The notes beneath the pieces are model-generated. The model was not told the origin of the DNA. It worked only from the letters and a program-made list of their open reading frames with translations, and ran no database searches. From Chloroflexota bacterium (GTDB lineage: Bacteria; Chloroflexota; Anaerolineae; Anaerolineales; Villigracilaceae), in contig JBMOMN010000036.1 in assembly GCA_049324115.1 (NCBI GenBank), positions 3,207 through 67,206 of the forward strand: a DNA stretch of 64,000 nt, in the 5' to 3' direction. The translations under genes were made by a program, and so were the position numbers. The stretch's first letter is position 1, and every line of letters starts with the position of its first letter. Below are positions 2,360 through 64,000 of the stretch, one piece after another.

Positions 2360-2800
2360 ATGCTCCAAATCAACCGTCAAACAGATTACGCCATTCGAGT
2401 GGTACTGGCGCTCGCCAAATATCCCCAGCGGACGCGGCTGGCTTCGGCGACGATCCAGCGCGAGATGTTGATCCCCAAGGCGTTCATGGCCCGGATCGTA
2501 GCCCAATTGGCGGCAAGCGGCCTGGTACAAACCTTCGCCGGGCGCGATGGCGGACTGGAACTCCCCTGCCCCGCTTCGGAGATCACCATCAGGGATGTCG
2601 TGGAGGTGTTCGAGGGGCCGATCCTCCTCTCCGAATGCCTCGAATCCCGCGGGGAGGATGACTGCCCATTCCGCGTCGATTGCCCGGTCCGCTCGAAATG
2701 GGGCCGCGTCCAGGCAGCCATGCTGCGGGAAATGGCCTCCATCACGTTCGAAGACCTGGCCATGGAGGCTTTAGCCATCCCGCTGGCTGTCCCGGCATAA
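2360..2800 (+). CDS. Rrf2-family transcriptional regulator, probably Fe-S binding
   Basis: N-terminus MLQINRQTDYAIRVVLALA is typical of an Rrf2 wHTH domain. A C93-x8-C102-x5-C108 cluster-ligand-like triad is present. Confidence 0.85.
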   Translation: MLQINRQTDYAIRVVLALAKYPQRTRLASATIQREMLIPKAFMARIVAQLAASGLVQTFAGRDGGLELPCPASEITIRDVVEVFEGPILLSECLESRGEDDCPFRVDCPVRSKWGRVQAAMLREMASITFEDLAMEALAIPLAVPA

Positions 2801-2848
2801 GTTATCCGCACGCAGGAAAAGCGTGCAAAATTTTGTAAAGGAGACTCT

Positions 2849-4240
2849 ATGGATCCAATCATTCTTTCACGGTGGCAATTTGGTCTCACGACCGTCTACC
2901 ACTGGCTCTTCGTCCCGCTCACGCTCGGCCTGGGCTGGTTCGTAGCCTACATGCAGACCCGCTACTACCAGACGCGTGACGAGAACTATAAAAAGATGAC
3001 GAAGTTTTGGGGCAAACTCTACCTGATCAACTTCGCCATCGGCGTCGTGACCGGTATCGTGCAGGAATTCCAATTCGGCATGAACTGGTCGGAATACTCC
3101 CGCTTCGTGGGCGACATCTTCGGCGCGCCGCTGGCCATCGAAGCCCTGCTGGCCTTCTTCATGGAATCCACCTTCCTGGGCGTGTGGATCTTCGGCGAAG
3201 GGAAAGTCCCTGAGAAGGTGCATCTGGCCGCGATCTGGCTGGCCGCCATCGGCTCGAACCTGTCGGCCATCTGGATCCTGATCGCCAACGGCTGGATGCA
3301 GCACCCGGTCGGCTACGCCATCAACGAAGTGACCGGCCGCGCCGAAATGACCGATTTCCTCGCCGTCATCGGCAACCCCAAGGCCTGGGTCTTCGTCTGG
3401 CACACCCTGGCCGACGGACTCGCCACCGCTTCCTTCCTCATCATCGGCATCAGCGCCTGGCACCTGATCCGCAAGCAATTCACGGAAGTTTTCAAGCCTT
3501 CCTTCCAGGTGGCCGCCCTGGTGGGCACGATCGCCAGCGTGTTCGTCTTCCTGGGCGGGCACACCATGGGCCAGCACATGTACGAAGCCCAGCCGATGAA
3601 ACTGGCCGCCCTCGAAGCGGTCTGGGAGACCGAGCAGCCCGCCTCCTTCTCCCTCATCACCATCGGCGACCTGACCGGCAGGCAGGAGGTCTGGTCCATC
3701 CGCATCCCCTATGCCATGAGCTTCCTGGCCTGTAACAACTTCTCCTGCGAGGTGAAAGGCGTGAACCAGTTGCAAGCGGAGTACGAGGCGGCCTACGGCC
3801 CCGGCAATTACATCCCGCTGATGGTCGTTACCTACTGGACCTTCCGCATCATGATGACCATCGGCTTCATTATGATGGCCGCCGCGGCCTGGCTGCTCTA
3901 TGCCACCCGCCGCGCCGGATACGAAAACGCAAAATGGTTCAAATTCCTGCCGTTCTGGGCGATCTTCCTGCCATACCTGGCCAACGTCAGCGGCTGGGTC
4001 TTGACCGAGATGGGCCGCCAGCCCTGGATCGTCTTCGGCCTGCTCAAGGTCCAGGACGCCGTCTCGCCCAACCTGACCGCCCTCGACCTGTGGATCTCGC
4101 TCGTCGGCTACACCGCCGTCTACGGCGTGCTGGCGGCGGTCATGTTCGGCCTGATGAAGAAATACGCCGTCGCCGGGCCGGATGCGGCCATGCGCGAGTC
4201 GGTTGACGTTGCGCCTTCGCTCCTCGGCGCGCAAGACTAA
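2849..4240 (+). CDS. cydA: Cytochrome bd ubiquinol oxidase subunit I
   Basis: 463 aa. Begins MDPIILSRWQFGLTTVYHWLFVPLTLGL, a typical CydA start. It is multi-TM and followed by cydB. Confidence 0.93.
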   Translation: MDPIILSRWQFGLTTVYHWLFVPLTLGLGWFVAYMQTRYYQTRDENYKKMTKFWGKLYLINFAIGVVTGIVQEFQFGMNWSEYSRFVGDIFGAPLAIEALLAFFMESTFLGVWIFGEGKVPEKVHLAAIWLAAIGSNLSAIWILIANGWMQHPVGYAINEVTGRAEMTDFLAVIGNPKAWVFVWHTLADGLATASFLIIGISAWHLIRKQFTEVFKPSFQVAALVGTIASVFVFLGGHTMGQHMYEAQPMKLAALEAVWETEQPASFSLITIGDLTGRQEVWSIRIPYAMSFLACNNFSCEVKGVNQLQAEYEAAYGPGNYIPLMVVTYWTFRIMMTIGFIMMAAAAWLLYATRRAGYENAKWFKFLPFWAIFLPYLANVSGWVLTEMGRQPWIVFGLLKVQDAVSPNLTALDLWISLVGYTAVYGVLAAVMFGLMKKYAVAGPDAAMRESVDVAPSLLGAQD

Positions 4241-5400: not shown

Positions 5401-8400
5401 ATGCATCGCCGACTCCTGACCCTGAGCCGCTCCTCCCTTTTGGCCTTATCCACCACGATCCTCGCGGGACTTCTGGCCGGACTCCTGACCATCGGCCAAT
5501 CCTGGTCCCTCAGCCGCGTCGTGGACGGGGTCTTCCTCGGCGGGCAGACTCTCGCCCAGGTGCTGCCGCTGATGCAAACCCTGCTGGCCCTCATCTTCGG
5601 GCGCGGCTTGCTGGCCTGGCTGGGCGAAGTCAGCGCCAATGCGGTCGCGGTACGGGTCAAAACCGACCTGCGCCAACGGTTGTTTACCCACATCCTCAGG
5701 CTCGGCCCGGCCTACACCCGCAGCCAGCGCACCGGCGAGTTGACAGCCGCCGCCGTCGAAGGCATCGAAGCCCTGGACGCCTACTTCAGCCAGTACCTGC
5801 CCCAACTGGTCACCTCGGCCCTGGTCCCGGTCACGATCCTGGCCTTCGTCATCCCCAATGACCTGCTCTCCGCCGGGATCCTGCTCGTCACCGCCCCGCT
5901 GATCCCCTTTTTCATGGTCCTGGTCGGCAAGACCGCCGAAGCCCTGACCAAACGCCAGTGGGACACCCTCAGCCTGCTCTCGGCCCACTTCCTCGACAGC
6001 CTGCAAGGGCTGACCACGCTCAAACTCTTCGGCCAGTCGAAGGCCCACACCGCCCGCATCGCCGACGTGGCCGGGCGCTTCCGCGACACCACCCTCGACG
6101 TGCTGCGGATCACCTTCCTCTCGGCCCTGGTGCTGGAACTGCTGACCACCCTCAGCACCGCCATCCTGGCGGTCGAGATCGGATTCCGCCTGCTCTACGC
6201 CCGCATGGAATTCCAGCCGGCGCTCTTCCTGCTCATCCTGGCCCCCGAATTCTACCTGCCGCTGCGGATGCTCGGCCTGCGCTTCCACGCCGGCATGGCC
6301 GGCACGAGCGCGGCGCGGCGGATTTATGAGATTCTGGAGACTGGAGAACAGGGACAAGAGAATAGTCGAATTCTGCCGGCCGAACCGCTATTCTCTACTC
6401 TCCATTTATCTAATCTCTCTTACACCTACCCCGGCGAAACGATGCCCGCCCTGCAAGACATCAACCTGACCATCCAGGCCGGGCAGCGGGTTGCCCTGGT
6501 CGGCAAGACCGGCGCGGGCAAATCTACGCTGGTCAATTTGCTGCTCGGCTTTATCCAACCCTCTTCAGGTCAAATCATCACGCAACACGCAATAATTTCC
6601 AATTACCAATTACCAATTACCAACAACCAACCTCACCCTTTCATCGCCTGGGTCCCCCAACACCCCTACCTCTTCAACGACACCCTCGCCGCCAACATCA
6701 AACTCGGCAAGCCGGACGCCACCCGCGAGCAGGTCGTGGCAGCCGCCCGCGCCGCCCGCCTGGACGAGTTCATCGCTTCGCTGGAGGATGGCTACGAGAC
6801 CCGCGTCGGGGAGGGCGGGGCGCGTCTAAGCGGCGGACAGGCTCAACGTCTCGCGCTGGCGCGGGCATTTTTGATGGACGCGCCGCTCCTCATCCTGGAC
6901 GAACCCACCTCCAGCCTGGACCCGGAGACCGAATCCCAACTCGACCAGGCCATCCGTGAACCTGGCCGGAGCCGAACCGTCATCACCATCGCCCACCGGC
7001 TGAACACCGTTTTCGACGCCGACAAGATCGTGGTGCTGGAGGCGGGCCGCATCGTCGAGACCGGCACCCACGACGAATTGCTGGCAAAAAACGGCGCTTA
7101 CGCCCGGCTGGTGCAGGCCCTCGCCCCGGCCGGTTCCCCGCCGGGAGCCGTGCCGCCCGCCCGCGCCGACGAGCAGAAACTTGTCCAGACGCTCGTGACC
7201 AGCAGCCTGGGCGACGCCATCAGCCCGGAATACCGCGGCCCGTCCACCCACCGCCTGCTCAGACGGCTGCTCGGCTTCCTGCGCGGCTCGTGGCGGCAGG
7301 TGGGGCTGTCGGTGCTGCTGGGGGCGGCCACCATCGGGTCCAGCGTGGCGTTGATGGGCACTTCCGCCTGGCTGATCTCGACCGCCGCCCTGCACGGCTC
7401 GGTGGCGGATTTCGGCGTGGCGGTGGTGGGGGTGCGCTTTTTCGGGATCGCCCGGGGCGTCTTCCGCTATCTCGAACGGCTGGTCTCGCATGGCGTGACC
7501 TTCAACCTGCTGGCCCGCCTGCGGGTCTGGTTCTACCGGGCGCTGGAGCCGCTCGCCCCGGCCCGCCTGATGCGCTTCCGCAGCGGGGACTTGCTCAGCC
7601 GCGTCGTGGCGGACGTGGAGATTTTGGAGAATTTCTACATCCGGGTAATCTCGCCGCCGGTCGTCGCGGCCCTGGTCGGCCTGGGGACCGGCCTGTTCCT
7701 GTGGCGCTACGACACTTCTCTGGCGTTGGCGCTGCTGGCCTCCCTGCTGGCGCTGGGGGTCGGCACACCGTTCATTACCCAGGCCCTCAGCCGGGCACCG
7801 GGGCGGGAACTCATCGCCCGCCGCGCCGCCCTCCACACCCTGCTGGTGGACGGCATCCAGGGCCTGCCCGACCTGCTGGCGTTTGGCCGGGCCGCCGACC
7901 GCGCCGCCCAAATTGACGCCGCCAGCCGGGATTACGGGCGCATCCAGCGGCGGATGGCCGCCATCAACGCCGTCAACACCGGGTTGGGCACGCTCCTGAG
8001 CAACCTGGGCCTGTGGACGGTCGTCCTGCTGGCAATCCCGCTCATCCGTCAAGGCCAAATCCCTGGCGTGATGCTGGCGACCCTGGGACTGGTCACGCTG
8101 GCCGCGTTCGAGGCCGTCACCCCGCTGCCGCTGGCGGCGCAGACGATGAGCAGCAGCGCCGAAGCCGCCCGCAGGCTGTTCGATGTGGTAGACGAAGTAC
8201 CGGGGGTCAGTGAGCAGTATCCAGTATCCAGTGATCAGCCTTCAATTACCAATTACCAATTACAAATTGCGGACCTCACTTTTACCTACCCCAACTCAGC
8301 CGCTCCTGCCCTGCAACATTTGACTTTCGACCTTCGCCCCGGCGAGTCCGTCGCCATCGTCGGGCCGAGCGGGGCGGGGAAATCCACCCTGGTCAATTTG

Positions 8401-62143: not shown

Positions 62144-62680
62144 TCACCCCCACGTTTCGACAATGATATTATCTGCCTTCCACTTTTCGATCCGGGAAAT
62201 CAACGACCCCTCCGGGCTGGCATGGATAATGATCACTCGCCTCGCAATTCGAGCGGCGATGTCATTGCTTTTCAGTGACATTACCTTGGTTACATGCGCT
62301 TGATATTCATTAAACGGCGAGATAACCAACATTCTGCCTTTATCAATTTCACTTTTCCACATAGAAGGAATCCTGGCCCCTTCCAGCCTGCGACCTAAAA
62401 CAGCAATAATTGGACAAGTACCTTTCAATAGAACTTCCAGAACTTCCTTCTCGGCGGGCGCATGAAAGCCGCTGATGATGCCCGTCTCGCCATTCCTGAT
62501 TTCTTTGGCGAAGTCATGCGCCTTCAAAATCAGGCTGGCGGGACATTTTGCGGACGAGAAAATTGCCAGCATGGGGAGATTGAGCAATTCGGCATTTCCG
62601 ACGCAATCCAATTCTCGAAACCAATCCTGGCTTGTGATCGGGTAACTTGGCTGGTCTTTAGAGAGAGACTTGATGTCCAT
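62144..62680 (-). CDS. Stand-alone DprA/Smf-like Rossmann (SLOG-type) protein
   Basis: LAIFSSAKCP...GIISGFHAPAEKEVLEVLL...PIIAVLGRRLE...MLVISPF...RRVIIIHASPEGSL follows the order of the DprA core motifs. No SAM/wHTH extensions. Confidence 0.6.
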   Translation of the reverse strand: MDIKSLSKDQPSYPITSQDWFRELDCVGNAELLNLPMLAIFSSAKCPASLILKAHDFAKEIRNGETGIISGFHAPAEKEVLEVLLKGTCPIIAVLGRRLEGARIPSMWKSEIDKGRMLVISPFNEYQAHVTKVMSLKSNDIAARIARRVIIIHASPEGSLISRIEKWKADNIIVETWG

Positions 62681-62713
62681 CGCTCCCTGGTTCTTCTATC
62701 CCGTTTGCACTGC

Positions 62714-63259
62714 TCAGTTGATTATTCTTGGATTGGCGGTCAGAATATCCACGCCTTTGCCTTTGAAATCCGAATCGTGCGTAACCAATACCAGGCTGTT
62801 ATTTTTGCAGAGACCTGCCAAAATTTGGTCGTTGAAATCGTTTGGGGTCGCTTCAAATTCCAACAACAGGTTATTGATATCAATAACCGAGAAACCGCTT
62901 TCTATACGAGCGGCGAATTTCAAGATATTTCGCACGGCGGCGGCTATGGCTTGCGAGATGGGGTGAAAGTCTGGGCTGTTGCGGAACTGCTTGAAATCTG
63001 GACGGCGGGATTTGTTTGGAAACCGGATGTCATATTCGATCCGCGCAAAGCGGTTGACGAACTCGGAAACCACCAGCACATCTACCCAAATCTGGCTTTT
63101 CGCCCGCACTGCCTCCGCGAGCGCGTTGGAATAAACTTGAGACCTGGGATCGTTGGGCGCGCCTTGAGGCCCGTAAAGCGTGAGCCAGATGTTGGCATCG
63201 AAAAAAAGGTTGTCCGTTTCAGCAAATTGGTAGACCGTGATGTCAACGGCTTTACTCAT
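62714..63259 (-). CDS. PIN-domain nuclease-like protein
   Basis: The acidic quartet pattern is FFDANIW, VSEFVN, FNDQIL and THDSDF. ATG 63259 overlaps the upstream stop (ATGAGTAA). Confidence 0.65.
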   Translation of the reverse strand: MSKAVDITVYQFAETDNLFFDANIWLTLYGPQGAPNDPRSQVYSNALAEAVRAKSQIWVDVLVVSEFVNRFARIEYDIRFPNKSRRPDFKQFRNSPDFHPISQAIAAAVRNILKFAARIESGFSVIDINNLLLEFEATPNDFNDQILAGLCKNNSLVLVTHDSDFKGKGVDILTANPRIIN

Positions 63260-63614
63260 CGTTATCTTCCCCCATGGCTTCGCGCCGCACCGCTTCAATG
63301 ATGGCTGGATCTTTGAAGTATTGCTTGGCTGTTTCGATCACGCGTTTCAAAAGCGCCAGGTCGTCTTTATCAATATCTTGAACGGACAAACTCTCTTTGA
63401 GAACATCCTGCGCGAAAAAACCATACAGTTGACCGACGGCGGCGTTCAGGAATGCCGAGGTAAGGCTTTCGACATTCTGGAACGAAAGACGAACTTTCTT
63501 GCCGTCTTTTAGCGCCTGTTGGATTTGCTCGAATACTTTTTGACCGTCTTGGGAGGCGACGCACAGACTGCTCCCGACGACTTCGTAAATGCGGAGGGTG
63601 ATTGTTTCGCTCAT
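63252..63614 (-). CDS. STAS-like (DUF4325-type) small protein
   Basis: 120 aa. GKKVRLSFQNVESLTSAFLNAAVGQLY is typical of DUF4325/anti-sigma-antagonist-like folds. It lies 12 nt after the GHKL gene. Confidence 0.55.
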   Translation of the reverse strand: MSETITLRIYEVVGSSLCVASQDGQKVFEQIQQALKDGKKVRLSFQNVESLTSAFLNAAVGQLYGFFAQDVLKESLSVQDIDKDDLALLKRVIETAKQYFKDPAIIEAVRREAMGEDNDE

Positions 63615-63626
63615 TATAGGTTCCTT

Positions 63627-64000
63627 TTAGAAAGGGTTTTGTGGCTGTTCAGACGATAAAGCGTAAATGCTGGCATCTGCCGTGTTGATCTCGATATTGA
63701 CCACCGTGCCGGGGAAGGGATGGGGCAGGGTTTTCTTTTCGACATTGCCATCGGCGCGTTGCTCCCAGTAGCCAGTATGGGATACGACCTGAATGCGCCC
63801 GCGGTTCAAGCGGATGAACTCGCGCAGTAATTTTAGCCCAAGCCCGCCTGGGATCGAACCCGTTTTGGTAGTGTTCCTGCCTTCCATTGCCCAATCAATG
63901 GCATCCTCAGGAGGAAAGCGCAATCCTTTTTTGTTGATCAGAGTTTGCGGGATACCGATTCCCAGGTCAGCAATCGCAAAGTCAATGTGGTTCTTGGCGG
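63627..64000 (-). CDS. GHKL (HATPase_c-like) ATPase/kinase, C-terminal part (gene runs off the window end)
   Basis: The frame is open to the edge: ...AKNHIDFAIADLGIGIPQTL (DxGxG) ...GSIPGGLGLKLL (G2 box). Confidence 0.65.
   Translation of the reverse strand, partial: AKNHIDFAIADLGIGIPQTLINKKGLRFPPEDAIDWAMEGRNTTKTGSIPGGLGLKLLREFIRLNRGRIQVVSHTGYWEQRADGNVEKKTLPHPFPGTVVNIEINTADASIYALSSEQPQNPF

Follow-up and report, generated by a model that had tools for sequence, protein, structure and literature searches.

Which system is encoded by a short minus-strand run of genes at the end of a 64,000-nucleotide (nt) stretch of a Chloroflexota genome (Anaerolineales, Villigracilaceae; GenBank assembly GCA_049324115.1, contig JBMOMN010000036.1, positions 3,207 to 67,206; hereafter the window) is the question addressed here. 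The original prediction grouped four genes, encoding a GHKL ATPase, a STAS-like protein, a PIN nuclease and a DprA-like Rossmann protein, into one possible partner-switch-controlled nuclease module. Our analysis indicates with good confidence that the interval from 62714 to beyond 64000 carries an intact vapKSC operon, which encodes a kinase-controlled toxin-antitoxin defense module of three components, VapK (GHKL), VapS (STAS-like) and VapC (PIN). The DprA-like gene is a neighbor of VapKSC and not a component. The partner-switch idea is therefore essentially right for three of the genes, yet the system was already published in 2026 as the anti-phage system vapKSC, with VapC as its PIN protein (Chambers, Rani, Min, Villa and Corbett, EMBO J 2026; PMC13373217, cited here from its accessible text and datasets). 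We base the assignment on gene order, domain architecture, catalytic and acceptor residues, and homology both to the crystallized Escherichia proteins and to operons listed by those authors.

All four genes lie on the minus strand where they had been predicted, and hidden Markov model searches placed each product in the expected family above the Pfam cut-off: HATPase_c in the full GHKL protein (E 3.9e-6), DUF4325 in the STAS-like protein (E 8.6e-16), PIN in the PIN protein (E 2.7e-5) and DNA_processg_A in the DprA-like protein (E 2.7e-8). The GHKL gene is indeed cut by the window end, and contig sequence extending beyond that point (L002) supplied the complete 293-amino acid (aa) protein (Table 1); the DxGxG and GGLGL boxes ascribed to it are both there, as DLGIG and GGLGL. 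Re-measured spacings agreed with those first given, with the STAS start 12 nt after the GHKL stop, 33 nt between the PIN and DprA-like genes, and a vapC ATG that overlaps the vapS stop at ATGAGTAA, an overlap of 8 nt. A longer, 194-aa PIN open reading frame (ORF) starting from TTG at 63298 was rejected, as homologs are 176-185 aa long and begin with MSK. Scanning the locus for promoters and terminators yielded nothing above shuffled controls. No terminator-like site was found in the intergenic gaps of the four-gene run, and the only two terminator matches were both intracoding and no commoner than in shuffles. The 3' end of the DprA-like gene coincides exactly with a drop in GC content from ~0.65 to ~0.48, which persists to the contig end and places the genes within an acquired block.

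Conservation of the trio was assessed by scanning species-representative genomes with an alignment of 24 GHKL proteins, which gave 375 pattern matches, 289 of them confirmed. The best 80 of the 289 confirmed stretches, together with the window locus, made up a set of 81 loci, in which ORFs were called and then searched with the four window proteins; the 80 are the closest relatives, with VapK identity of at least 49%. A VapS-like ORF was present in all 81 loci and a VapC-like ORF in 76, and every locus that extended far enough (76/76) had the three genes in the order vapK-vapS-vapC on one strand. In the five loci without vapC (L008, L011, L019, L050 and L059), the contig stops within vapS or shortly after it. 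Among the 76 vapC genes, two are broken, one being present as a fragment only (L048) and the other split into two ORFs (L060). Co-occurrence of all four families had been expected; GHKL, STAS and PIN genes are conserved together, and the DprA-like gene is not part of that linkage.

The cassette is spread across Chloroflexota, Elusimicrobiota, Nitrospirota, Desulfobacterota, Nitrosomonas, Methylomonas, Poribacteria, Binatia, Acidobacteriota, Planctomycetota and other hosts. At E <= 1e-3, relatives of the GHKL protein fell into 1946 protein clusters and those of the PIN protein into 309, and several GHKL/PIN match pairs shared the same longest-contig size, a first hint of linkage. Two loci tie the window directly to the published collection, as both genomes appear in Dataset EV3 of PMC13373217: Nitrosomonas nitrosa Nm90 (L054), with 52% VapK identity to the window protein, and plasmid P5 of Deinococcus gobiensis I-0 (L117), with 35%, where the three genes are annotated as ATP-binding protein, STAS-like domain-containing protein and PIN domain-containing protein. 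Searches of plasmid and phage collections gave VapK relatives on 3 plasmids, among which only that of D. gobiensis has the full cassette annotated, and in 10 phage records, 2 of which cover at least 80% of the protein. A table of Francisella hispaniensis prophage genes (PMC7924643, accessible part) lists a 293-aa hypothetical protein, a 112-aa DUF4325 protein and a 125-aa transmembrane protein beside a repressor and an integrase; judged by these table entries, the genes may represent a VapK/VapS-like pair with a different effector.

The sole PDB sequence match of the window VapS is chain 9z7o_A, "Escherichia VapS" (E 8.3e-14), in whose alignment Ser53 of the window protein coincides with S48 of Escherichia VapS. 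Ser53 is invariant in all 81 family loci and Thr52 is kept in 79. Residues 85-103 are also strongly conserved, with D85, V92, A96, K97, Y99 and F100 invariant. By its sequence, VapS is thus a putative STAS-like antitoxin with a conserved C-terminal region predicted to contact VapC. For VapC, a family profile built from 27 members gave one significant PDB match, chain 9z7o_C, "Escherichia VapC" (E 1.4e-9, full length), and aligned D21 with the catalytic D28 of the Escherichia toxin. Conservation of the PIN acidic residues had been proposed as a check on the prediction, and D21, E66, D141, D144 and D162 are invariant in the 27 sequences.

VapK was resolved mainly by structure prediction. Its AlphaFold model has a mean predicted local distance difference test score (pLDDT) of 83 and a predicted template modeling score (pTM) of 0.85, and residues 1-130 folded separately likewise have a pLDDT of 83. 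Foldseek with the whole model returned only generic GHKL folds (Hsp90, Topo VI-B and histidine kinases) at low TM-scores, and VIA-align was needed to resolve both domains. With this method, residues 1-93 matched RsbV (6m36_B; Z 10.8, root mean square deviation 2.4, 90 residues aligned) and many other STAS entries at Z 8-10.5, and residues 100-279 matched SpoIIAB (1l0o_A; Z 10.4, 135 residues aligned). The model therefore predicts an N-terminal STAS domain, assigned by fold alone, followed by a SpoIIAB-like GHKL kinase domain. No HTH precedes the STAS domain, with which the protein directly begins. N-box residues E147 and N151, the G1 box D181xGxG185, the G2 box G221-G224 and Trp46 are invariant in the 24-sequence VapK alignment and in the EV3-listed relatives. 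A sequence kinship between the VapK N terminus and VapS was considered and rejected (hhalign probability 0.2%). Family databases recognized the kinase poorly: NCBIfam gave histidine-kinase matches only, all sub-threshold, and PADLOC v2 gave a weak DrmA-domain match for VapK and no model for VapS or VapC.

What the operon would do can be read from the published system. Experiments with Escherichia sp. E4736 provided a VapS2VapC2 crystal structure at 3.4 Å (PDB 9z7o) and showed that VapC is toxic, that D28A abolishes toxicity, and that VapS neutralizes VapC unless its C terminus is deleted or S48E is introduced; S48E VapS no longer co-purifies with VapC (PMC13373217). The Escherichia operon conferred ~2 log protection against phage Bas42, which needed VapC D28, VapS S48 and VapK F54 (PMC13373217). 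On this model, VapC would be kept inactive within a VapS2VapC2 complex in which the VapS STAS domain would bind the toxin and the VapS C-terminal helix would cover the active site. A damage or infection signal, in the published proposal single-stranded DNA (ssDNA), would turn on VapK, and active VapK would phosphorylate the invariant Ser on VapS helix 2, Ser53 here. Phospho-VapS would then release VapC to cleave nucleic acid, presumably RNA, and the infected cell would be halted. The original suggestion that an RsbW-RsbV-like kinase/STAS pair coupled to a PIN RNase forms a regulated toxin or defense module matches this published mechanism (PMC13373217).

The window operon shares with published VapKSC the three genes in the same order, a STAS+GHKL kinase without HTH, a STAS antitoxin in which a Ser is invariant and the C-terminal region conserved, and a PIN toxin with a catalytic Asp; VapS directly, and VapC through its family profile, match the crystallized Escherichia chains. 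It differs in belonging to a branch distant from that of Escherichia, so that VapC is recognizable by profile only, in its host (Chloroflexota, Anaerolineales), and in its insertion into the cassette slot that a methyltransferase/DprA-like system, described below, provides. The CapK/CapS transcriptional switch (PMC13373217) likewise has a STAS+GHKL kinase that phosphorylates a conserved Ser on its partner's STAS domain, but VapK lacks the N-terminal HTH and VapS the wHTH, and the predicted output is toxin release rather than operon de-repression. RsbW/RsbV and SpoIIAB/SpoIIAA resemble VapKSC in the folds of both VapK domains and in the logic of a Ser-phosphorylated STAS antagonist, whereas VapKSC has a kinase-fused STAS domain and controls a PIN nuclease. 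Since neither the cassette nor the island contains an ORF for a sigma factor or PP2C phosphatase, and the controlled gene encodes the PIN protein, an RsbW/RsbV anti-sigma switch was ruled out. VapBC type II toxin-antitoxin loci, including the PIN.4 subgroup (Matelska et al. 2017; PMC5499597, accessible text), also have a PIN toxin gene that overlaps an upstream antitoxin gene, but here the antitoxin, a STAS protein, has no DNA-binding domain and an extra kinase gene is present. A VapBC antitoxin needs an RHH, AbrB, HTH or PHD domain, and the upstream protein here has DUF4325/STAS only; VapBC was rejected.

Several observations weigh against the identification as a working VapKSC system. Toxicity, neutralization and phage protection were, according to the accessible text of PMC13373217, assayed for the Escherichia sp. 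E4736 operon only. Escherichia VapK was insoluble, and its kinase activity and ssDNA activation were deduced from CapK and an AlphaFold 3 model (PMC13373217); for all vapKSC operons these two properties are thus presumed by analogy. In the window VapK, Trp46 is a candidate counterpart of Escherichia F54, which lies in the predicted ssDNA site, although their equivalence is unproven. The STAS domain at the N terminus of VapK is supported by fold and not by sequence, as a VapK profile had no PDB sequence match and a PDB profile search with the N-terminal domain returned nothing at E <= 10. The window PIN protein by itself had no PDB sequence match at E <= 0.01. More distant VapK-like kinases, outside the 80 closest relatives, may pair with other effectors. 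Finally, activity in this host is predicted from the genes alone.

Three other readings of the operon deserve consideration. VapK could act in a strict partner switch without a damage trigger, reporting ATP or sequestering its partner as RsbW and SpoIIAB do, with VapS phosphorylated constitutively. RsbV and SpoIIAB are the structures that the two VapK domains match best, and ssDNA activation has, in the accessible text of PMC13373217, been shown for the paralogous CapK and for no VapK, both of which would suit such a switch. We nonetheless regard it as improbable, given that mutation of the predicted ssDNA site of Escherichia VapK abolished phage protection (PMC13373217), that a fused STAS domain with invariant Trp46 is kept family-wide, as expected of a sensor surface, and that the cassette carries no sigma factor or phosphatase gene. 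The trio could instead be a plain addiction module that stabilizes a mobile island and has no defense role in the host. Its toxin-antitoxin architecture lies inside a horizontally acquired low-GC block, and 64% of published vapKSC loci have no known defense gene within 10 kb (PMC13373217). This alternative appears highly improbable, as the Escherichia operon protects against phage (PMC13373217), the cassette sits within restriction-modification (R-M) loci here and in many relatives, and simple addiction needs no dedicated sensor kinase.

The third reading is that all four genes form one unit, with the DprA-like protein as a fourth component, such as a sensor of ssDNA or nucleotides or a second antitoxin, feeding into VapK or VapC. 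The close, co-directional spacing of vapC and the DprA-like gene, uninterrupted by any terminator-like site, would fit this arrangement, as would recurrence of the full vapK-vapS-vapC-DprA order in metagenome locus L105 and of vapC-DprA on the short contig L103. Furthermore, ShosTA and PsyrTA use DprA-like proteins as antitoxins, and such proteins bind ssDNA, the proposed VapK trigger (PMC12961424, accessible text). However, the gene is not beside vapC in the 75 other vapC-bearing genome loci, including L003 and L005 (82% and 77% VapK identity), the closest VapK relatives with downstream sequence, and 8 of the 10 DprA-like loci found in a metagenome scan have no VapKSC. Moreover, the three loci with the adjacency are closely related (L105 VapK phmmer E 2e-170; DprA-like proteins 66-76% identical), a kinship that fits one ancestral insertion. 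The DprA-like gene tracks an Eco57I-type methyltransferase instead, and ShosA neutralizes its toxin without binding it (PMC12961424). A four-gene unit, the part of the original prediction that failed, is consequently distinctly improbable, and we retain vapKSC as a three-gene operon.

The distribution of the DprA-like gene identifies it as the downstream partner of the methyltransferase. Among the 81 VapK loci, a DprA-like ORF occurred in 2, the window and L074, where it lies 4 kb off on the opposite strand (E 8e-6). Of the metagenome loci, L102 and L107 have the gene directly after a ~1100-aa type IIG-like enzyme; it follows a fused GmrSD in L104 and a DUF262/NsnA-like gene in L106, and in L108 to L111 it either comes after unassigned ORFs or the sequence is too short to tell. 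A tblastn test found an Eco57I-type methyltransferase (PADLOC PDLC03628) or HKD-SNF2 helicase gene upstream in 12 of 28 DprA-like loci, 18 of which had flanks of 1.5 kb only. In a sample of 301 genomes of the class, whose related members are not independent, the DprA-like gene occurred in 18, the methyltransferase in 19 and both in 12. Nine of these 12 have both genes on one contig and strand, with two contigs overlapping end to start in the case of this genome. From the methyltransferase downstream to the DprA-like gene is a gap of 0.15 to 4.4 kb, which holds different cassettes. The HKD-SNF2 helicase gene is upstream of the methyltransferase here and near the DprA-like gene in at least 3 other loci.

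The DprA-like protein itself fits none of the described types with which it was compared. It is not competence DprA (TIGR00732 dprA, 21.8 bits versus a cut-off of 191), and its family profile reaches DprA PDB chains at E 0.01-0.03 only. The PADLOC PsyrA model matched it partially (E 2.1e-11, positions 122-257 of 398). It shares with the ShosA and PsyrA antitoxins a DprA-like Rossmann domain and a place in a defense island, but at 178 aa it lacks the SAM-like N-terminal domain, and it is paired with a methyltransferase. PsyrTA and ShosTA were rejected, as no PRTase-type toxin was seen among the island ORFs and the gene is flanked by vapC and a host amidase gene. The DprA-like antitoxin ShosA binds ssDNA and RecA (PMC12961424); with ssDNA as the proposed VapK trigger, a functional link between VapK and the DprA-like protein is conceivable. 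The pattern of occurrence of the gene speaks against a link confined to VapKSC.

Island order is a host acetyl-CoA-synthetase-like gene, then the HKD-SNF2 helicase (1139 aa), the methyltransferase (~1100 aa; Eco57I-type, type IIG-like), GmrSD (two ORFs), vapK, vapS, vapC and the DprA-like gene, followed by the host amidase. Within ~12 kb of low-GC DNA, every island gene is on the same strand. Continuity of the island is indicated by an overlap of ~123 nt, inside the methyltransferase gene, between the end of the window contig (C36) and the start of contig C49; the repeated tail described next is probably where the assembly broke. Coordinates of the window genes and of the repeated tails are listed in Table 1.

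Table 1. Coordinates of the four window genes and of the methyltransferase tail copies
Feature	Window position	L002 position	Strand	Remarks
vapK (GHKL kinase), 3' part	63627..64000	2627-3508 (full gene)	minus	open at window end; full gene reaches window-equivalent 64508
vapS (DUF4325/STAS-like), 120 aa	63252..63614		minus	Pfam DUF4325; PDB 9z7o_A match
vapC (PIN), 181 aa from ATG	62714..63259		minus	Pfam PIN; family profile matches PDB 9z7o_C
DprA-like Rossmann protein, 178 aa	62144..62680		minus	Pfam DNA_processg_A; last gene of island
Methyltransferase tail, real		6045-6245		
Methyltransferase tail, short remnant		5957-6001		
Methyltransferase tail, 44-residue remnant		3535-3666		between GmrSD and vapK

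The C-terminal tail of the methyltransferase, carrying motif DFIINYDVKYRMG, is present three times beyond the window end, at window-equivalent 64535-67245. A 53-nt repeat, 98% identical between its two copies (L002 3553-3605 and 6075-6127), flanks the GmrSD cassette, and comparable tail remnants occur in L105 and L106. These repeats suggest a cassette slot filled by recombination at the tail, and it is in this slot, between the methyltransferase and the DprA-like gene, that VapKSC and the GmrSD gene are inserted. GmrSD occupies L002 3673-5929 as GmrSD_N (437 aa) and GmrSD_C (321 aa) ORFs with a 23-nt overlap; a near-identical GmrSD is a single 637-aa ORF in L104, and the split is probably a frameshift. 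Tentatively, and with less than even confidence, we propose that the surroundings constitute an undescribed R-M-like system of an HKD(PLD)-SNF2 helicase, an Eco57I/PglX-type methyltransferase and, as conserved third gene, the DprA-like gene, in which the slot bounded by methyltransferase 3'-tail copies took up, depending on the genome, VapKSC, GmrSD, a DUF262/NsnA-like gene or a small toxin-antitoxin pair. Limited literature searches found neither this helicase/methyltransferase/DprA-like system nor a description of a recombination-driven cassette slot, and the terms "DprA" and "SLOG" each have 0 occurrences in the accessible text of PMC12839542.

Embedding in R-M loci is not confined to this island. 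Clustering of the ORFs that flank the 80 related loci revealed two recurrent families, a type III Mod methyltransferase (N6_N4_Mtase; PADLOC MTase_III, E 1.7e-113) and a type III Res protein (ResIII plus endonuclease domain; PADLOC REase_III). Of the 80 loci, 20 have a Mod-cluster ORF whose end reaches 3 nt into the cassette, 19 have a Res-cluster ORF and 15 have both. Ten have the order mod-vapKSC-res (L020, L026, L043, L044, L054, L056, L061, L068, L079 and L080), with the mod stop overlapping the vapK start and res starting 2 to ~210 nt after vapC. Four Poribacteria loci have the order res-mod-vapKSC, followed by a PD-T4-4/PDC-M47-like pair. As a separate observation, a PD-T4-4_A/PDC-M47A-like ATPase gene comes after vapKSC in five Poribacteria loci (L031, L037, L060, L066 and L082), and in L037 is itself followed by a PDC-M47B-like gene. 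The accessible part of Dataset EV3 contains no "RM_type_III" entry and lists Nm90 with "PDC-S01" only (PMC13373217); the type III R-M embedding of vapKSC seems to be unrecorded there.

The window thus holds an intact copy of a known system, from a phylum with few entries in the published list: one Chloroflexi entry and no Anaerolinea entry in the accessible part of Dataset EV3 (PMC13373217). A gene trio to which Pfam, NCBIfam and PADLOC v2 give no annotation or a generic one gains a name and a mechanism. The family also far exceeds the 289 published instances in size and phyletic breadth, with 1946 clusters and, in species-representative genomes alone, 289 genome loci. The only potentially new elements are the R-M embedding and the DprA-anchored slot. 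That VapKSC often lies inside R-M operons, here downstream of a type IIG-like enzyme, and that the DprA-like gene marks a slot for cassettes are of possible interest to specialists, and both the embedding and the slot fit the published idea that ssDNA from restriction or repair serves as an alarm for a second layer of defense (PMC13373217). If the proposed backbone system is real, its restriction activity could make the ssDNA that trips VapK, and an ssDNA-binding DprA-like protein could set the threshold, so that the island would operate as a wired two-layer defense.

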